In this document: piece by piece, positions 15,040 to 23,315 of the stretch | Layout of the letters: each line of letters opens with the position of its first letter | Numbering within the stretch: the first letter of the stretch is position 1 | Origin: a virus | Lineage: Duplodnaviria; Caudoviricetes | Reading direction: 5' to 3' (one strand) | IMG/VR virus record: IMGVR_UViG_3300047284_000016 | Span: 1-29,811 of that record | DNA length: 29,811 bases | Position numbers and translations under genes: made by a program | The notes under the pieces: generated by a model | Database searches by the model: none | The model's input: only the letters and a program-made list of their open reading frames with translations | What the model was told of the DNA's origin: nothing

Positions 15040-18000
15040 ATGGAACCTATCCGACTATCCCGCGCGCCTTGGATTAAGCCACTAAGGAATGATGAGCTTG
15101 AGGATTTGCGGGTTAGCCCGGATGCGCAGTTAGCGCGTGACCAAGAACGCTTACGTGTTCTAGAAGATGAGCAAGTTTATTACGCAGCCACCGATACGCC
15201 CGGGCAACGTGCTGCTGGGCAAGTAGAAGTTAATCGCGCGCGAGAAGCTGTAGGCGCGCCTACAGGAACTTCAGGGCCTATCCGGTTAAATCGTGCGCCT
15301 TGGCTTAGTCCTAAGCGAAAAGGACTTGCTGATATTTACGCGGAAGAACCTGCCCCACCACCTGAACAAAAAGGTCCGGGGTTTGTACGCGGCGCTGGTG
15401 ATCTTGGTGTCAAAGTACTTGCTGGTATCCCGCAAGCTGGCGCTGCGATTACTGGTCTTGGCACACTCGTACCGGGGATGGATGAATACACCATTCCTGC
15501 TACTGAACTTTTAGGTAGTTTGTCTCAATCTATTGAGAACGCGTGGCTGTCTGAGCAGCAGCTTAAAAGACAGCGAGAAATGTCCGCTCGGCTCAAAGCT
15601 AGCGAAGATCAATCGTTGTTCGGACAGGTAAAAGAAGCTGCTGGGTACTTGTACGAAAACCCGTACCAGATTGTGCCCACTGCGGTTGGCTCTATTCCAT
15701 CAATGTTCGCCGGTGGCGCTGTTGGCCGTGGTATGCAGCTCGGCGCGCGGGGTGTTGGATTAACAATGAGCCCAGTAGCAGCGGCTGCGTTTGGCGAAGG
15801 TTCTGTGATCGCCGGTAGTGTCGCTGGTAACATAGCGCAGAAGTCCCCCAATTACATGGACAGGCTATACGCGCTGCCCGCTGGCGCTGCTGGTGCAGCG
15901 TTTGGTTACTTCGGTGGCCGCTTGATGGGCCGTAGCGACATTGACACTATGATCTCCGCTCGACTAGCGCGGGGAGAATCAGCAGATTTGCTTACCCCAG
16001 ACATCGGCACAGTAAGTCGCGTGTCGCGCGGTATCGTCGGCGAAGGTCTGCTGGAAGAAGCTCCACAGTCAGCTATCGAGCGCATGGCGGTTAACCTTGG
16101 CACCGGCCAAGACTTGATGACGGGTGTTGGTGGTGAAGCTGTTATAGGCGCTGCTTCTGGTGCAGCTATGGGCGGCGGGTTTGGCTTGCGCCGTCCGGGT
16201 GATACCTACACCATGCCAGAAGCAAAACAGGCGCTACAGATTATTAGCTCTCCCGACGCACCAGTTGAGTCGAAGATCGCCGCTGCTGACTTCATCCGCC
16301 GTATTGAGATCGGTGAACTCGGTGAACAACAAGCCACACAACGGTTTAACGAATATCTGAACTCGTTGTACGACCAGAAGTTCACCAATAAAGAAATAGA
16401 GAAAGACCTGCTGACTGGCGAGAACAAGGTACAACCTGCCCCGTTGCAGCAGGTAGAGACTGGTCAGCAAGTCGCCCCCGGCATTTATCAAACCGGCGCG
16501 GGCATATACACCATGGCCCCCCAAGACACCACTGCGCCGATGGGTAGAGAAATACCCCGTGGCCTTGGCGCTCCTGCTGGTCCTGCACAACGAGTAACTA
16601 CACAGCGTCCGGTTGAAGGTATCCCGGGCATGACTGTTGACGAATCTGGCGTTTATCGTATCGCTGAACCACAAGCTCCCGCTGGCGCTCCCCCGAGCGT
16701 TTCCCCGAGTGCGACACCCGCACCGGGGTCTTTTACACCCCCCGCGCCTACACCTGCAAAACGTGGACGCAAGCCGAAAGCCGCAGCGCCTGTCACACCG
16801 CCCACTGAAGTCAAGGTCACACGTGGCGATGAGATTAAGGCTGCGGCTGCTATTGCAAAAAGCACACCTATCCCAGACGATGTGTCCGCAGAGGTCGCCG
16901 ATATTCTTAGCAAATTAGAAGCTAAAGTTGCTAGCGAAAAAGGCAAAGCTGCTGGCACGATAACTTTGCCACAGGGCGTGTACAAAGGCATGGTGCAAAT
17001 GCTGCGCAGCCCGAAAGATAACCCATCAACAATCGTCTACGCGGATCAAGGCGCTCAAGCTGACCCACAACTAACCGCAAGATACACTGGCACTATGCGC
17101 CAGATGTACAACGCAGCGCAACGTGTGCTGTTTGCATCCCGCGATCTATCTTCTGCGCAAGACAACGCGCTTGCTACTGGCAAAGACGAACGTATTAACG
17201 CCAAGCCCGGAGCACCTACGGTAGCCGCAGCAGAAGCTGAAGCAGCGAAAATCACCCAAAACATTATTAAGCTACGGCAGCAACTACGCAACGCTATCGA
17301 TGAATTAGTAGGTGTTGCTGGTAGTGAGATGAACGCCGAAGCGCTGGTTGCAGTGCTAAAAGCCCGCGTACAAAGACGCGAGCAGAAGACGGTTGACGTT
17401 AAACGGTTTCGTGATGCGGCTGCTGCGCTGAAGAAAAACCCAGAGTCAAAAGTAGCGCAAAAAGAATACGACATCATTGTCGATTCGTTGATCTCCCGCG
17501 CATGGCGCTCGTACAAAGATGGTGAGTTGGATGTTGCAGAAGCAGTCGATGTGGTGTCGCCTGAAAAAACTAGGCCGTCATACGAAGCTACTGAAGGCGC
17601 AAAAGCGCAGCCTCCGCTTGTAGAAGCTGCAAAAGGGAAAGCGTCTAAGTCGTTCAAACCCGTTAGAGTAAAGCAGCCCAAAGAAACTGATGAAGAGTTT
17701 AAGGCGCGGCAAGACGAAGCGTTTGAGAAATATAAAGCCCGAGTCGAACAAGGTAAGGGATTGCAAGGTGTTCTTAATTACTTTAGAGCATACAACCGCC
17801 CTACCTACACCAACACAATCGCTACCGCGCTGGTCTACGCGCTGCGCCGCCGTTCGCGGCAGCCAAAGATCGAGTGGATTGCCGACGATGACAAGGTAAC
17901 TAACCCGTCCTACGATCCGCAGACAGACACCGTACGCATCCACAGAAACGCTTCCGCAGAAGAGACGCTGCACGAGTCGCTACACGCTGGTCTGCAATGG

Positions 18001-21000
18001 TTGGTCTACTCCAACCCGAAAGCGCCAGAAGTACAGCGCTTGATGGCATCGCTCGATAAGGTGATGAAGGTTGATCTGAATAAGACCAACCTCACCGAGT
18101 CGCAGAAAGCCAAAGCTGGTGAAGTCATCGGTGTACTCAGAGATATTTTGAGTCGCAAGGGTAAGGGCAAGGAAACCGCCAAGCTAGACGCGGTGCTGGA
18201 ACTGATCTCTTACGGCAACACGCTGGCAGACTTCAAGTCGCTGTTGAAGCAAATACCAAGCGCTCCGAACGCAGAAGCCCGCACATGGCGCAACGCTATT
18301 GAAGATGTATGGAACCGCATCGTATCTCTCGCGCAGAGCTTGCTGGGCGTACGTAACACAGTCGCTAACGATGTTCTCGAAGACACAATCGCCTTGCTTA
18401 ACAAGGCAGCGACTACCGATCAGCAGATGCCCGACAAGCTAGACGGGTCGATGCTCGACATTGCAACGACTGCGTTTAAGAAATGGTTCGGTGGTTCCAA
18501 GATTGTTAACGCAGCAGGTAAGCCAAGAGTCATGTACCACGGCACGGCTGCGGACATCTTCGAATTCAAAGCGCAGCAAGCTGGCGCTATCTTTGTCACT
18601 GATGATCCTGAGTTCGCACGTCGGTTTACCGGCTCGTCTGAGTCGTTTATGGCGCAGCGCCCAGCAGAGTTCTTGGACGCGCAAGGCATGGCGAATACCC
18701 GCAAGGTAGCGCTGGCTGCGTTGGAAAAAGAAGAAGGTCTGTCGTTCACACAGCGGTTAAAGTTCCGCCGCATGATTAACGACTTGAAGTCAGACGTATA
18801 CACAGCAGAGATCGACAACATCCGCGATTTCCCTGTCGAAACTCAAATGGCAATATTCAAGGCGGCTAAAGACAATCTGCCGTCTCGCGCCAACATCATC
18901 CCTGTGTACGTCCGTGCGGAGAACCCGTTCGACTACCAAAGCCCAGAGCATGTTCAGCGTGTTGTTGAGCGGGTAAAAGAAATCCGTGGCGATAAGCGCA
19001 TCGACGCTAACCTGCTGCAAGACCTGTCCGAAGGACTGTGGGACCGCATTGAGCTGGATGATGTGCAGAGCGCCATCAAGTCGCTCGGGTTTGACTCGTT
19101 CTACGTTAAAGAAGGCGGTCGCAAGAATCTGGGAGTCTATCAGCCGAACCAGCTCAAGTCGCAGTTCAACAAGGGTACGTTCTCAACTGATAGCGGCAAC
19201 ATCCTCGAAGCTGCTGTGTCTAGCAACAAGGGCACTGAGAAAGCTGCTGGCATCACAGCCTCAGATTATCGTGGTTACACAACCCGCATCGCCCCTGCTG
19301 CGCTCAGCACTCGGTTCGCGTTTGACGCAATTGGCTGGGATAAGAACGTCGCTGAGCGTATTTCCAAAGGCACATCGAAACTTGCAGACATGATCCGCAA
19401 GGACTTCCCTGCGGCTGAGCGTTTCCTGATCTACATTAACTCGACGTTCAGTGCTGGGGAGTACACCAAGCAGCAGATCGAGGACTTCAAAGTTAACAAG
19501 AGCGTGGGCTATCAGCAACTGGACCGCCTCGCAAACTTTGTAGCAAATCGCCCAGCGCATGAAGTGATGGCGCTAATGAACTACATGGACGGCGACAAGA
19601 AAGCTCTGGCTACCTTGCCTGACCAAGAAATCCTAAAGCGCACAGCAGACAATGTGCTGGCGTGGTTCAATGCGTATGTAAGCGAGCTGCCAGCTTCGGA
19701 GCGTAGTTTCTTCCGTGGCAATAAGTTTTCCGAGTCTCTCCTGTACGCGACCCGCAGCGAACAGATCGCACGTAGCACTCTCGGCGCACAGAAGCTCGCA
19801 AGCGTTATGGGTCTGAAGCATCGTACGGAGAAAACCCTCGAAGGCTTCCAAGACTGGATGGCTAAGAACGACGAAGGCGATCCTATTCTCGATGGGCGTT
19901 TTTACCAAGTCTTCAAGAAAGATGGTCTGAAGCCCGGAGCTGGCCCTGAGCCTTCTGGCTTTATGTCGGTAAGTGAGTTTGAGAAACGTGGTCGGCAGTC
20001 ACCTGTGGGCTACCAAGTCGATGCTACTCGTCAGTGGTGGGTTTCTGACTACAATGATAAAAGCGGCTACCGCTTCTCGGCGAGTATGACCGCCAAGCAA
20101 GCCGTTGAAGAGAAAAAGGCTGACCAACTTGCTAACGCCATGCGCAACACCATGTCTGCTCTTGCTGTTAACTACGCCAGCAAGAAGCTGTTCGAGAACA
20201 TGGCAGTATATGGTTACGAAGAAGGCAAGCCGACTGCGACTTCTCTAGCGTTCAACGACATCGACGAGATTAAAGACGCAACTGGTCGCACGGTGCGGGA
20301 AGATCAGATTCTGCGTGTGTCTGAGGGCATGGCTAAATCGCCAGAGATTATCGGTCTGTACCGCCGCACGGGTACATGGGTGCAACTGCCTGACACGCCA
20401 ACTTACGGCGACCTCGGCGGCAAGATCATTCCGGGTCCGGTGTGGAGCGCGTTGCTGGACATGTCTGACCGTCAGCCGTTGATTCACAATCGTGTGTTCA
20501 ACAACACGATGCGTTGGTTCAAGAAGTCCAAGACGGTCTACAACCCCGGCACCCACATCACCAACATCGCGTCTAACGTCACGCTGGCAATGATGCACGA
20601 CATCCCAGTCATGACAATTGGCAAAGCTGCGCGCTTGTTCTCGCTGTATGAAGTGTCACCCAATAAATTAAGCAAAGCTGAACTTGACCTGATGTCGGCG
20701 TTCATGAACTCAGGCGCTATGCTTGGCGACTACTCTAGCGTTGAAGTTAAGCAAGCCCTGTACGAAGCATGGGGTCAGAACATGGGCGTTGATGGCGAGT
20801 CATCGTTGATGAAGCGTTTGTCTGCGTTTGCTGGCTACGAGAAGTCGAAGGCACAGAAGTTAGTTCAGCTAGCAGCTGGTAAAGCTAAAAAGCTAGATGA
20901 CATCGCTACCGAGACATACGCTGCCGAAGATAACGTGTTTCGTCTAGCTGCGTTCTTGACCAAAGCTGGTGATCTCCAGAACCTAGAGGGCACCGCCACT

Positions 21001-21936
21001 GCAACTCCTGAGCAACTAAAGGCCGCAGGTACGTTTGCCCGCAAGGCGTTCCTTGACTACGACATCGACTCAAAGGCGGTCAAAGTTCTACGTCAGTCGG
21101 TCTTGCCGTTCATATCGTGGACCTACGCGGTCACACCGGTTCTGGCTCGCATGGCGCTGCACCAACCATGGAAAATCGCCAACGTCATAGCTGCGTACTA
21201 CCTGATCGAAGTCGCGCTGGCTGCTATGGCTGGGGATGATGACGATGAGCTACGTAAAGCTGGTCCTGAGTACATGCGCGAGCGGATGTTCTTCGGCATG
21301 GGTCCACACATGTTTATCCGGTTGCCGTTCGGCGACGCGCAGAATCCTGTGTACTACAAGCTGGGCGACTATGTGCCGTTCGCGTCGATGACCAAAGGTT
21401 TGCCGAATGGTCTGATGGGTCAGTCGTGGGTTCCCGCAGCTGTTACTCCGGGCGGTCCGTATCTGACCGCAGCCGCTGGCTTGCTGTTTGGTGTTGACCC
21501 ATACACCGGCAAAGCGATTCACAAGCCGACCGACTCAGAGTGGGACAAACTACTGAACTCAGCCAAGTTTACCTACGATTTGGCTATGCCTCCCGCAGTG
21601 TCGAGCCGTAACATAGACAAAGCCCTCGACATTAAAGACGAGAAAGCTGGTGTCACAGGGGCTATGCCCAGCAACCTAGTTTTTGCTCGGATGCTTGGGT
21701 TTAAGGCGTATGATTACGATGTCGATGAGTCCATGATTGTGCAGGACAAGGTAGTCAAGGGCATCGAGAAGGACTTCAAAGCCGCTATGCGCAAGGCTAA
21801 GAGGGAAGAGTACAGCAAAGGCTACCCAGACTACGACGCACTCGACGAGGAATTGGAAGTACTCAGAGAACGTATGGAACGCCGGATTGCAAAGGTTCGC
21901 GGTGAAGAGCTTGAAGATGAACTTGACGAGGAATAA
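15040..21936 (+). CDS. Giant (2298 aa) polyvalent / internal virion protein
   Basis: It has a Gly/Ala-rich N-terminal region, an HESLH zincin motif (17971-17985) and an ART-PolyVal-like domain (18475-19206). The C-terminal region is LPD38-like (FLDYD...VLPFISW...IRLPFG...GVDPYTGKAI). Confidence 0.8.
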   Translation: MEPIRLSRAPWIKPLRNDELEDLRVSPDAQLARDQERLRVLEDEQVYYAATDTPGQRAAGQVEVNRAREAVGAPTGTSGPIRLNRAPWLSPKRKGLADIYAEEPAPPPEQKGPGFVRGAGDLGVKVLAGIPQAGAAITGLGTLVPGMDEYTIPATELLGSLSQSIENAWLSEQQLKRQREMSARLKASEDQSLFGQVKEAAGYLYENPYQIVPTAVGSIPSMFAGGAVGRGMQLGARGVGLTMSPVAAAAFGEGSVIAGSVAGNIAQKSPNYMDRLYALPAGAAGAAFGYFGGRLMGRSDIDTMISARLARGESADLLTPDIGTVSRVSRGIVGEGLLEEAPQSAIERMAVNLGTGQDLMTGVGGEAVIGAASGAAMGGGFGLRRPGDTYTMPEAKQALQIISSPDAPVESKIAAADFIRRIEIGELGEQQATQRFNEYLNSLYDQKFTNKEIEKDLLTGENKVQPAPLQQVETGQQVAPGIYQTGAGIYTMAPQDTTAPMGREIPRGLGAPAGPAQRVTTQRPVEGIPGMTVDESGVYRIAEPQAPAGAPPSVSPSATPAPGSFTPPAPTPAKRGRKPKAAAPVTPPTEVKVTRGDEIKAAAAIAKSTPIPDDVSAEVADILSKLEAKVASEKGKAAGTITLPQGVYKGMVQMLRSPKDNPSTIVYADQGAQADPQLTARYTGTMRQMYNAAQRVLFASRDLSSAQDNALATGKDERINAKPGAPTVAAAEAEAAKITQNIIKLRQQLRNAIDELVGVAGSEMNAEALVAVLKARVQRREQKTVDVKRFRDAAAALKKNPESKVAQKEYDIIVDSLISRAWRSYKDGELDVAEAVDVVSPEKTRPSYEATEGAKAQPPLVEAAKGKASKSFKPVRVKQPKETDEEFKARQDEAFEKYKARVEQGKGLQGVLNYFRAYNRPTYTNTIATALVYALRRRSRQPKIEWIADDDKVTNPSYDPQTDTVRIHRNASAEETLHESLHAGLQWLVYSNPKAPEVQRLMASLDKVMKVDLNKTNLTESQKAKAGEVIGVLRDILSRKGKGKETAKLDAVLELISYGNTLADFKSLLKQIPSAPNAEARTWRNAIEDVWNRIVSLAQSLLGVRNTVANDVLEDTIALLNKAATTDQQMPDKLDGSMLDIATTAFKKWFGGSKIVNAAGKPRVMYHGTAADIFEFKAQQAGAIFVTDDPEFARRFTGSSESFMAQRPAEFLDAQGMANTRKVALAALEKEEGLSFTQRLKFRRMINDLKSDVYTAEIDNIRDFPVETQMAIFKAAKDNLPSRANIIPVYVRAENPFDYQSPEHVQRVVERVKEIRGDKRIDANLLQDLSEGLWDRIELDDVQSAIKSLGFDSFYVKEGGRKNLGVYQPNQLKSQFNKGTFSTDSGNILEAAVSSNKGTEKAAGITASDYRGYTTRIAPAALSTRFAFDAIGWDKNVAERISKGTSKLADMIRKDFPAAERFLIYINSTFSAGEYTKQQIEDFKVNKSVGYQQLDRLANFVANRPAHEVMALMNYMDGDKKALATLPDQEILKRTADNVLAWFNAYVSELPASERSFFRGNKFSESLLYATRSEQIARSTLGAQKLASVMGLKHRTEKTLEGFQDWMAKNDEGDPILDGRFYQVFKKDGLKPGAGPEPSGFMSVSEFEKRGRQSPVGYQVDATRQWWVSDYNDKSGYRFSASMTAKQAVEEKKADQLANAMRNTMSALAVNYASKKLFENMAVYGYEEGKPTATSLAFNDIDEIKDATGRTVREDQILRVSEGMAKSPEIIGLYRRTGTWVQLPDTPTYGDLGGKIIPGPVWSALLDMSDRQPLIHNRVFNNTMRWFKKSKTVYNPGTHITNIASNVTLAMMHDIPVMTIGKAARLFSLYEVSPNKLSKAELDLMSAFMNSGAMLGDYSSVEVKQALYEAWGQNMGVDGESSLMKRLSAFAGYEKSKAQKLVQLAAGKAKKLDDIATETYAAEDNVFRLAAFLTKAGDLQNLEGTATATPEQLKAAGTFARKAFLDYDIDSKAVKVLRQSVLPFISWTYAVTPVLARMALHQPWKIANVIAAYYLIEVALAAMAGDDDDELRKAGPEYMRERMFFGMGPHMFIRLPFGDAQNPVYYKLGDYVPFASMTKGLPNGLMGQSWVPAAVTPGGPYLTAAAGLLFGVDPYTGKAIHKPTDSEWDKLLNSAKFTYDLAMPPAVSSRNIDKALDIKDEKAGVTGAMPSNLVFARMLGFKAYDYDVDESMIVQDKVVKGIEKDFKAAMRKAKREEYSKGYPDYDALDEELEVLRERMERRIAKVRGEELEDELDEE

Positions 21937-21938
21937 CT

Positions 21939-22193
21939 ATGGCTAAGACACCAGCATGGCAGCGCAAGGAAGGACAGAACCCGAAGGGCGGTCTGAACGC
22001 TAAGGGTCGTGCCTCGTACAACGCAGCTAATCCCGGCAAGCCGGGGCTAAAGGCACCGCAGCCTGAAGGCGGTCCTCGTCGTGATTCTTTTTGCGCCCGG
22101 ATGAAAGGGATGAAGAAGAAGCTCACCTCGGCCAAAACGGCCAACGACCCGAACAGCCGTATCAATAAATCTTTGCGCGCATGGAAATGCTGA
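21939..22193 (+). CDS. Small basic protein, DUF6321-like
   Basis: AWQRKEGQNPKGGLNAKGRASYN...RRDSFCARMKGMK...DPNSRINKSLRAWKC, with GAGGA as RBS. The family name is from recall. Confidence 0.8.
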   Translation: MAKTPAWQRKEGQNPKGGLNAKGRASYNAANPGKPGLKAPQPEGGPRRDSFCARMKGMKKKLTSAKTANDPNSRINKSLRAWKC

Positions 22194-22194
22194 C

Positions 22195-22374
22195 ATGAAG
22201 ACTAAATCTAAGGTCAATCACGCAGGGGTTTACACAAAGCCCGGGATGCGTAAGAATTTGTTTGAGAAGATAAAGGCTGGCGGCAAAGGCGGCGACCCCG
22301 GAGAATGGTCAGCGAGGAAGGCACAGATGCTGGCTAGGGAATACAAAGCCAAAGGCGGGGGGTATAAGTCGTGA
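22195..22374 (+). CDS. Small basic protein (59 aa), N-terminal half of DUF5872-like
   Basis: Manual translation gives MKTKSKVNHAGVYTKPGMRKNLFEKIKAGGKGGDPGEWSARKAQMLAREYKAKGGGYKS*. It is absent from the ORF track. Confidence 0.85.
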   Translation: MKTKSKVNHAGVYTKPGMRKNLFEKIKAGGKGGDPGEWSARKAQMLAREYKAKGGGYKS

Positions 22375-22601
22375 AAGACCCGCAAAAGTCGCTCAAGGAA
22401 TGGACCGCACAGAAATGGCGTACTTCAGACGGTAGCCCGTCCAAAGGCAAAAAGCGTTATCTACCTGACGCTGCATGGAAATCATTAAGCCCTTCTGAGA
22501 AAGCTGCGACTAACCGCGCGAAGTCTCAAGGTAACGCGAAGGGTAAACAGTTTGTGGCGCAGCCAAAGCGGATCGCCGCAAAAACCGCGAAGTACCGTTA
22601 A
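22371..22601 (+). CDS. Small basic protein (76 aa), C-terminal half of DUF5872-like
   Basis: QKSLKEWTAQKWRT...KRYLPDAAWKSLSPSEKAATNRAK...GKQFVAQP. It has a GTGA overlap with the upstream ORF. Confidence 0.85.
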   Translation: MKDPQKSLKEWTAQKWRTSDGSPSKGKKRYLPDAAWKSLSPSEKAATNRAKSQGNAKGKQFVAQPKRIAAKTAKYR

Positions 22602-22615
22602 CCAAGGAGGATATT

Positions 22616-22750
22616 ATGTACGGTAAAGCAATGGCCCCAACTAAGTCTTCATCCAAGAAACCCGCAGCTTTTAAGCCTTGCAAGGGTTGCCCCAATCCAA
22701 CTAAGTGCGCCAAGATGGGCATGTGCATGATGAAAGGGGCTAAGAAATGA
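22616..22750 (+). CDS. 44-aa Lys/Met-rich, 4-Cys microprotein
   Basis: AAGGAGG RBS at 22604-22610. It translates as MYGKAMAPTKSSSKKPAAFKPCKGCPNPTKCAKMGMCMMKGAKK* and is absent from the ORF track. Confidence 0.8.
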   Translation: MYGKAMAPTKSSSKKPAAFKPCKGCPNPTKCAKMGMCMMKGAKK

Positions 22751-22905
22751 AGAAGTCCAAGCCAGCTACTAAAAGCAAAATGATCTCGGAGTATGGTGGC
22801 AAGGAGAAGTATGCTTCCAAGACCGCCATGATGAAGCACGAGAAGAAAGAGTCCAAGGCTATGGAAGCCAAGGAAAAAATGATGATGAAGAAAGGTAAGA
22901 AGTAA
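22747..22905 (+). CDS. 52-aa Lys/Met/Glu-rich microprotein
   Basis: ATGA-coupled to the upstream ORF. It translates as MKKSKPATKSKMISEYGGKEKYASKTAMMKHEKKESKAMEAKEKMMMKKGKK* and is absent from the ORF track. Confidence 0.8.
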   Translation: MKKSKPATKSKMISEYGGKEKYASKTAMMKHEKKESKAMEAKEKMMMKKGKK

Positions 22906-23063
22906 TGCCGTTCACATCAGAAAAGCAAGCCCGCACTATGCGGGCTGCTGCACACGATCCAGCTTTCGCCAAGAAGATGAAGATTTCACAAGCTGCTGCC
23001 AAGAAGATGGTTGCCCATTCGAAAGGCAAAGCTGTGAAATCTTCGGCTAAGCCGAAGAAGTAA
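22905..23063 (+). CDS. 52-aa Lys/Ala-rich microprotein
   Basis: TAATG-coupled to the upstream ORF. It translates as MPFTSEKQARTMRAAAHDPAFAKKMKISQAAAKKMVAHSKGKAVKSSAKPKK* and is absent from the ORF track. Confidence 0.8.
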   Translation: MPFTSEKQARTMRAAAHDPAFAKKMKISQAAAKKMVAHSKGKAVKSSAKPKK

Positions 23064-23079
23064 TTACTTCATTCCGGCT
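23040..23079. repeat. Overlapping inverted repeats at the convergence of the two transcription arms
   Basis: TCTTCGGCT-A-AGCCGAAGA (23040-23058) overlaps the perfect palindrome GAAGTAATTACTTC (23057-23070). The latter extends imperfectly through AGCCG (23050-54) and CGGCT (23075-79). Confidence 0.7.
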
Positions 23080-23315
23080 CGTTTGTTTCTTGGGAATGAG
23101 CGATTGGCGGAGGCGGGTACTGCACGTAGGTTCCCGTTTCCGTTACCTCCACCTTTGACGATGGGGCGCTTGTGGTCAACGTCTTTGCCGTCTCCCTTTG
23201 ACACCACGCCCTTACGTTCCATCTCGCGACGCGCTGCGTTGCGCTTCGCCCGATTCTTCTTCTGTTCCTCAGTACCCTGATAATTCTGGTACTCAGTCTT
23301 ATAGTTCCGTGCCAT
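23064..23315 (-). CDS. Small HNH-family endonuclease-like protein
   Basis: DGKDVDHKRPIVKGG.N...NLR......NRS is a beta-beta-alpha-Me motif (H-N-N variant). AGGAG lies upstream on the - strand as RBS. Confidence 0.85.
   Translation of the reverse strand: MARNYKTEYQNYQGTEEQKKNRAKRNAARREMERKGVVSKGDGKDVDHKRPIVKGGGNGNGNLRAVPASANRSFPRNKRAGMK

Follow-up and report, generated by a model that had tools for sequence, protein, structure and literature searches.

The prevailing view is that cations and polyamines, not proteins, neutralise the DNA in phage heads; for the basic virion proteins of chloroviruses and the protamine-like core proteins of adeno-, asfar- and baculoviruses, neutralisation of packaged DNA has been proposed (PMC3281028). 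In phage T4, a 10-residue leader targets the basic internal proteins to the head, and gp21 cleaves after L/I-X-E (PMC9026906). Polyvalent proteins are predicted to be injected together with phage DNA (PMC5512222). The cyanophage cluster T4-GC119 is called only a structural or hypothetical protein in the published tables and passages that list it. In the full-text literature (subscription papers and bioRxiv supplements excluded), no account of the families or islands of the six ORFs described below was found; within the same scope, DUF5872 is mentioned once, in a gene table, and DUF6321 nowhere.

The window, meaning the whole stretch of DNA analysed, is a partial phage contig of 29.8 kb. Its + strand carries, in this order, tail, lysis, internal virion and ejection-type genes, which lead to the gene of a 2298-aa ART-PolyVal protein (15040..21936, +; PF18760, E 3.6e-12), likely an ejection or polyvalent protein. 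The - strand encodes a primase-helicase, an SNF2 helicase and VRR-NUC. The original prediction placed six consecutive ORFs of 84, 59, 76, 44, 52 and 52 aa on the + strand at 21939-23063, in the late region directly 3' of the giant gene, and both the ORFs and their position were borne out; ORF1 starts two bases past the giant gene's stop. The junctions also read as described, namely TGAcATG (22191-22197), GTGA (22371-22374), ATGA (22747-22750) and TAATG (22903-22907), and ORF3 starts with a GTG that overlaps the ORF2 stop. The perfect AAGGAGG ribosome-binding site of ORF4 (22604..22610, +) lies five bases 5' of the ATG at 22616.

All six proteins are basic, with net charges of +11 to +16 and pI values of 10.05-10.97. 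They contain 13, 12, 15, 11, 18 and 12 Lys residues (ORF1 to ORF6), and the earlier hand counts for the four small ORFs (12, 11, 18 and 12 for ORF2 and ORF4-6) were correct, as were the KK ends of ORF4-6 and the Met-rich pair, which is ORF4 (6 Met) and ORF5 (8 Met). Arg is present at 0-7 per protein versus 11-18 Lys. For comparison, the 18 larger genes of the window encode proteins with 1.7-7.8% Lys and a net charge of -5.9 to +3.2 per 100 aa. A seventh basic ORF, overlooked in the original prediction, encodes an HNH-like protein of 83 aa (23064..23315, -; phrog_4590, E 2.5e-23) and meets ORF6 tail to tail. The stop codons of the two abut at 23061-23066 with neither a gap nor a terminator-like site, and similarly tight spacing can be noted in most ORF6 loci of the same phage group.

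A promoter and terminator scan of the window yielded 2 and 3 sites, respectively, with no excess over shuffled sequences. In four riverine RNA libraries, contigs of relatives with 90-99% identity span the giant gene, parts of the island and the primase, although such contigs cannot reveal transcription, strand or level. Elsewhere in the window, a beta-propeller-like gene (1050-2378) has a GC3 of 0.28 versus about 0.55 in other genes and is likely a recently acquired tail-tip or receptor-binding gene. A host assignment from genome assemblies was dropped, since the 79 loci found were spread over unrelated taxa and nearly all were metagenome bins.

ORF1 (84 aa, 21939..22193, +) is a stand-alone DUF6321 module with a net charge of +16. 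The resemblance to this family noted earlier was confirmed, with PF19846 matching at 70.3 bits versus a gathering score of 28.5 (E 2.2e-19) over positions 2-72 of 72. The AF2 model of ORF1 is open and helical, with four helices (pLDDT 85.6, pTM 0.52).

ORF2 (59 aa, 22195..22374, +; phrog_17747) and ORF3 (76 aa, 22371..22601, +; phrog_14910) are, judged from sequence, the N-terminal and C-terminal halves of one DUF5872-like domain. The kinship with DUF5872 proposed earlier held through natural fusions and bridging relatives and failed as a direct match: PF19197 did not match ORF2 or ORF3 themselves at E 10. Natural ORF2-ORF3 fusions were revealed among 17 of 120 longer ORF3 homologues and among 138 of the 150 best matches to an ORF2-3 profile, which itself favours fusions. 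With E values of 2e-5 to 8e-6, three of the scanned fusions fall just short of the DUF5872 cut-off, and two align with the family from near its start (E 2e-5). A protein atlas links the ORF2-3 cluster to DUF5872 with a score of 0.95, the family being present on 12-35% of members, and a fold search with a fusion model lists a giant-virus DUF5872 protein (E 0.05). The bridging families L131N and L105C pass the DUF5872 cut-off and cover its positions 1-39 and 52-101. ORF2 is tied to L131N by hhalign (92.7%, E 4e-7), and the ORF3 bridge to L105C is weak (E 0.055). In locus L131, modules of these two types stand behind DUF6321 in the same order as in the window. DUF5872 kin are also present in an algal giant virus.

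The AlphaFold model of a natural ORF2-3 fusion is likewise open and helical (pLDDT 77, pTM 0.54). In fold searches, the best Z was 3.5 for this model and 3.0 for ORF1, and the absence of any Z of at least 5 in both indicates neither a new nor a different fold. A sequence search of solved structures with the six proteins returned no match. A frameshift fusion of ORF2 to ORF3 was rejected for the window because an in-frame TAA precedes the ORF3 start, and it is unlikely elsewhere, given ORF2-ORF3 spacing of up to 1715 bases.

Modules of these types are also found in larger proteins. ORF3-type modules are fused to an SLT transglycosylase, and of 20 long proteins that were scanned, 6 join the whole ORF2-3 domain to ART-PolyVal. 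Several proteins of 2,200-3,900 aa (P0359, P0366, P0371 and others) have the ORF2-3 domain near the N terminus, followed by NUDIX, a zeta-toxin-like kinase and many HTH domains. Upstream of ORF2 homologues in P0071, P0076, P0088, P0090, P0100 and P0109, an ArfA-like module is fused (PF03889, E 2.3e-6 over 20 residues, above the cut-off).

A fused ORF2-3 gene was found among housekeeping genes at six loci in Chlamydiae-labelled assemblies and at two in further assemblies (L367:2815-3222, L379:2827-3207, L391:993-1376, L396:2827-3207, L397:2824-3207, L398:2884-3207, L376:2779-3207 and L401:2827-3210). The neighbours include cytochrome oxidase, nrdR-dksA-lspA, RtcA, PhoH, peptide deformylase and branching enzyme genes. 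Most of these copies contain 24-30% Lys, and in L367 and L396 a second basic protein is encoded divergently beside the fused gene. Chlamydiae condense their DNA with Lys-rich proteins, and possibly these copies were captured as a nucleoid protein. The placement of the eight copies among housekeeping genes suggests an ORF2-3 activity that needs no capsid. In a complete Nostocales chromosome, a fused ORF2-ORF3 gene (L372:2857-3228) lies behind an HTH gene and a 533-aa ORF and is perhaps a phage remnant.

ORF4 (44 aa, 22616..22750, +), defined by composition and homologues, is Lys-rich, has no Pfam or PHROG match and contains a C-x2-C-x5-C-x5-C motif, which may form a small Zn site. Its homologues occur in 37 of 80 ORF6-anchored loci. 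ORF5 (52 aa, 22747..22905, +), assigned on the same grounds, is rich in Lys, Met and Glu and is the least conserved member, being present in 8 of 80 ORF6-anchored and 4 of 80 ORF3-anchored loci. ORF6 (52 aa, 22905..23063, +) matches phrog_16759 (E 1.6e-10) and the N-termini of phrog_25121 and phrog_22033. The ORF6 module forms the N terminus of jumbo-phage proteins annotated as structural, 121Q gp51 being an example, and likewise of 201phi2-1 gp383; in 201phi2-1, gp382 bears a mass-spectrometry flag and gp383 does not. The seventh ORF belongs to the same module pool, despite its opposite strand here: its homologues were found in 12 of 80 ORF3 loci, ten of them on the module strand, this type is fused to ORF2 in P0077, and one homologue passes HNH_3. 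An Ntox28 hit of the seventh ORF (E 0.007, under the cut-off) was rejected as an assignment and read as HNH-like kinship only. A further protein, gp194 of phage S-SZBM1 (L086:3502-5625), has a DUF3008-like, ORF6-resembling start and an end of the S-adenosylmethionine-lyase family, and its modules are joined by E-type junctions.

The conservation of the island was analysed in 240 loci from IMG/VR, for which the 80 top hits of each of ORF3, ORF1 and ORF6 were taken; some of these loci share contigs and are not independent. The six ORFs had been proposed as one system; all six occur together in 2 of the 240 loci, a count lowered by the under-detection of the short ORF4 and ORF5 by tblastn, and nearest relatives swap members, so a fixed six-gene operon was rejected. 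Linkage was sustained for the ORF2-ORF3 pair and not for the whole set. Among the best 80 ORF3-anchored loci, ORF2 is present upstream of ORF3 in all 80, ORF1 in 28 and ORF4-6 in 3-4 each. Of the 160 loci that have ORF1 or ORF6 as the anchor, 75 contain ORF3, and in 72 of these ORF2 lies upstream. The locus edge truncates two of the three exceptions, and in the six loci where ORF2 occurs by itself, the sequence stops within 1.3 kb. The nearest relatives have a giant protein with 95-98% identity and an ORF6 with 100% identity, yet ORF2 and ORF3 are missing from them; in their place are an endonuclease-like ORF and a different basic peptide, and ORF1 is present as another variant. The giant-protein gene lies 5' of the island in 41 of 80 ORF6-anchored loci, and the content is variable at a fixed place behind the ejection gene.

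Per locus, the mean number of basic ORFs is 3.6 on the module strand versus 0.1 on the other (240 loci). A heuristic census counted 874 basic ORFs in 193 clusters, 33 of which occur in at least three loci. Terminase, portal, capsid, tail and lysis proteins are among the commonest large neighbours, judged by representatives, and 11 of the 32 representatives scanned have no PHROG match. The best reading of these sequence comparisons is that interchangeable basic late-region modules form a large pool, of which the six ORFs are one local sample, and this pool is common to thousands of unrelated water-borne viruses.

Purifying selection, for which dN/dS below 1 had been named as a check, was detected in all six ORFs. 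In distinct ungapped homologues, pN was below pS in 108 of 108, 88 of 88, 76 of 76, 19 of 19, 6 of 6 and 78 of 78 cases for ORF1 to ORF6, although homologues picked by protein likeness favour this outcome; close relatives behave likewise (for ORF6, pS 0.28-0.30 versus pN 0.05). The sequence comparison thus confirms ORF1-6 as conserved genes under purifying selection. Annotated phage records were matched by ORF1 (512), ORF3 (19) and ORF2 (17), and these phages infect cyanobacteria, SAR11, SAR116, Roseobacter and Methylophilales, with identities of 60-83%. By estimate, ORF1 matches about 16,000 IMG/VR stretches; the ORF2-3 profile matches 2205 clusters at 50% identity. ORF1 keeps 88-98% identity while synonymous sites are saturated, and at least 70% across host phyla. 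High identity in phages of diverse hosts fits a host-independent ligand.

A link to the virion is provided by T4-like cyanophages. Their DUF6321 ends a protein of 91-995 aa encoded between the terminase genes, which is the cluster T4-GC119, and this DUF6321 is about 70% identical to ORF1. The member from S-SM1, gp115, is a chain of basic modules with Glu-ending junctions and DUF6321 at the end. In Table S8 of PMC3037559, T4-GC119 is detected in purified S-SM1 virions with 13 peptides and is not detected in Syn9 virions, the column order being read from the legend and from gene lengths that match the records. Of 24 predicted tryptic peptides of gp115, 15 lie outside the three modules, and the 13 detected ones may or may not include module peptides. 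Two gp115 modules can be linked to ORF2 and ORF3 through the bridging families: L131N to module 4 (77%, E 2e-5) and L105C to module 3 (46%, E 2e-4). By sequence, the ORF2 route is solid, and the ORF3 route has one weak link. A direct match was dropped, as only the transitive route worked: hmmsearch of ORF2 and ORF3 against gp115 gave nothing, and hhalign gave 0.2-0.3%. S-SCSM1 gp29 contains the same three modules and was labelled 'virion protein' by its depositors, a label that presumably reflects mass spectrometry.

Among 85 T4-like loci, 31 of 41 distinct flanks before DUF6321 match the E-site pattern, and four proteins open with a leader like that of IPII and IPIII. S-CREM1 gp179 consists of MKTYNDFITE and DUF6321 and nothing else; its leader is identical to the T4 IPII/IPIII leader MKTYQEFIAE in 7 of 10 positions. 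S-SZBM1 gp192, built of a leader and DUF6321, and gp194 are missing from the 30-protein virion table published for that phage. In the ORF1-6 sequences, no leader, E-site or GG tag was found.

Other motifs mark the module boundaries in other lineages; the counts that follow are not independent trials, because kin share motifs. Of 42 distinct flanks of ORF3 homologues with a C-terminal extension, 35 have GG no more than 8 residues past the module (background 97/1184), and 6 have an E-type site. Before ORF2, GG is present in 78 of 104 flanks (background 100/595), with the consensus [MYF]-x-x-G-G. In other ORFs, the density of [FYM]xxGG is 2.59 per 1000 aa in fused-module loci versus 0.83 in the rest, and at least three such motifs were counted in 40 of 63 fused-module loci versus 30 of 166 others. 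Adenovirus and ASFV core precursors are processed at Gly-Gly sites. In phage CRP-9, 10 of 16 [FYM]xxGG motifs are in gp54 and the basic proteins gp65-67, and none is in the coat, putative scaffold, portal or terminase; a Pfam search for a GG-motif protease among 12 CRP-9 proteins found none. The gp54 protein (L333, record 41038-45225) has 1395 aa and six of the motifs and is encoded between the portal and the putative scaffold. In one class of phage proteins (L089:4851, L163:3084, L239:544), the N terminus is a basic leader whose last residues are [FY]xxGG, and in sequence it resembles a capsid-targeting leader.

GG and E linkers as universal boundaries were rejected, as neither flank type was enriched in 150 diverse representatives. 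A further motif, [RKH]N[PG], which was chosen by eye and then counted, is present at 31 of 72 C-flanks and 18 of 90 N-flanks versus 89 of 4332 in the background and is a candidate third processing or loading signal. Repeats of it were also seen at module boundaries and N-termini of the ART-PolyVal proteins P0258-P0330. The + strand of the window has only 6 [FYM]xxGG in 8084 aa, and its phage displays none of the three boundary codes. These data fit the view that modules can be fused only in phages with a signal for release or loading, and that the window keeps separate, coupled genes.

Our preferred explanation, to which we give somewhat better than even chances from the sequence comparisons, is that the products of the six ORFs are internal proteins of the head, dispensable to the phage, which attach to the packaged genome and accompany it into the cell. 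They would be co-translated late through the overlapping junctions. Loading into the prohead would rely on a leader or tag in lineages with fused modules, and on plain affinity for DNA or scaffold where the modules stand alone, as here; in T4-like phages, the maturation protease would free the modules from polyproteins. In the head and just after ejection, the proteins would neutralise part of the DNA charge or shield the DNA. ORF1-3 and ORF6 probably grip a defined nucleic-acid or capsid surface, given their conserved aromatic and Gly positions and predicted helices, and ORF4 and ORF5 look more like simple polycations. With +77 charges per set, the modules could plausibly neutralise the DNA in part or shield it locally, but no more: neutralising 10% of an assumed 45-60 kb genome would take 117-156 sets, or 4.7-6.3 MDa, and full neutralisation of the genome by the modules is implausible. 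The fusions of ORF2-3 to ART-PolyVal proteins and of ORF3 to SLT favour co-delivery, as far as domain architecture can indicate it. The co-ejected set that the original prediction offered as one option gains indirect support from the T4-like cyanophage homologues. Several observations speak against the explanation: the six lack a leader, E-site or GG tag that could load them, homologues were not detected in the Syn9 and S-SZBM1 virions, 201phi2-1 gp383 bears no mass-spectrometry flag, the ORF3 route to gp115 is weak, GG and E flanks were not enriched in the diverse representatives, and fused ORF2-3 genes lie among Chlamydiae housekeeping genes. A protamine- or histone-type identity, raised in the original prediction, was not supported: the proteins are rich in Lys, not Arg, and the fold searches with the ORF1 and fusion models gave no Z of at least 5; the modules have conserved W, Y, F and G positions, unlike low-complexity Arg-rich protamine.

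The same proteins might act only in the cytoplasm, as late packaging or assembly helpers that bind concatemeric DNA or the prohead core and are absent from the mature virion. The frequent position of the modules beside terminase and portal genes and the HNH-like member would suit such helpers, and homologues were undetected in the Syn9 and S-SZBM1 virions as tabulated. In T4, too, the core proteins are largely lost after cleavage at numerous E sites (PMC9026906). We nevertheless regard this alternative as unlikely, because T4-GC119 was detected in S-SM1 virions (PMC3037559), the leader-plus-module build is that of the retained T4 internal proteins, and modules are fused to SLT and polyvalent proteins.

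Binding to RNA or ribosomes is less probable again. Here the ORF products would serve host takeover by imitating small basic ribosomal proteins or rescue factors and directing translation, and their size, Lys content and Zn-type motifs agree with this. Very high conservation across unrelated hosts suits rRNA as well as DNA, an ArfA-matching module is fused to ORF2 homologues, and chromosomal copies exist in Chlamydiae. However, the ribosome-binding role suggested originally was not substantiated, as profile searches with the six gave no ribosomal family at E 10 and no rescue-factor family, and no solved chain matched them. Such a role needs neither late head-region placement nor protease-type boundaries, and the DUF5872 kin in an algal giant virus also speak against it.

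It is improbable, ranking just behind ribosome binding, that the proteins are packaged and injected as specific anti-defence effectors, each blocking a host nuclease or sensor. T4 IPI is a precedent (PMC9026906), membership varies among near-identical phages, and the modules are fused to polyvalent effector proteins. The identity of ORF1, 88-98% at saturated synonymous sites and at least 70% across host phyla, is at odds with this proposal. Arms-race effectors usually diverge fast. Neutral or selfish hitch-hiking that does the phage no good, with recombination and nearby endonucleases as the means of spread, would agree with the shuffled order and the EndoVII- and HNH-like genes in or beside the islands, but is very improbable in view of the purifying selection on all six ORFs, the strict ORF2-ORF3 coupling and the conserved boundary motifs.

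A broader version of the internal-protein explanation is possible, though doubtful: aquatic tailed phages may share a portable nucleoid toolkit of dozens of small basic modules that coat DNA, pass between unrelated phages, have kin among giant-virus proteins, were captured by environmental Chlamydiae and are loaded into heads separately or as polyproteins cut or tagged by [ILV]xE, [FYM]xxGG and [RKH]N[PG]. If so, [FYM]xxGG and [RKH]N[PG] would represent sites of a maturation protease, or tags for capsid loading, of a kind not yet described. Should a protein coat or co-injected shield prove real and widespread, it would alter the accepted view of DNA neutralisation for abundant marine and freshwater phages. 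Since ORF1-6 yield only 1-4 tryptic peptides of at least 7 residues each, standard virion proteomics could have missed them. With cultured carriers available, among them CRP-9, HMO-2011, HTVC035P, S-CREM1 and S-SM1, and boundary motifs that predict exact cut sites or loading tags, the idea is directly testable, and the motifs are possibly of use for loading cargo into capsids.

When compared with described systems, the island shares features with several and coincides with none. T4-GC119 (S-SM1 gp115, S-SM2 gp109, S-SCSM1 gp29) has the same DUF6321 module, DUF5872-like halves and late-region location; however, it is one polyprotein with E-type junctions, whereas in the window the six genes are separate and coupled in translation. 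ORF2 plus ORF3 correspond to the two halves of DUF5872 (PF19197), a family of giant viruses and phages, but here the domain is split into two genes, neither of which reaches the Pfam cut-off. The basic proteins of chloro-, adeno-, asfar- and baculoviruses are Arg-rich, whereas the six are Lys-rich and belong to a phage of a bacterial host, and they are likened by description. With the polyvalent proteins (Iyer et al. 2017), the locus shares the ART-PolyVal domain of the neighbouring giant gene and the ORF2-3 domain fused to such proteins elsewhere; polyvalent proteins consist of several disparate domains, whereas the six are single-module and non-enzymatic. T4 IPI, IPII and IPIII are small and basic like the six (44-84 aa, pI above 10). 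They are dispensable and vary among relatives (PMC9026906), and the six are likewise present or absent among near relatives. A near-identical leader and an E-type cut site are found on ORF1 homologues, whereas the window's proteins lack the leader, and searches of PHROGs and PDB revealed no sequence match between the T4 proteins and the six. Unlike the T4 internal proteins, the modules occur in podo- and myovirus lineages that are not related to each other, and they can be joined in polyproteins. Judging from these comparisons, the six most likely work like the T4 internal proteins without belonging to that family.
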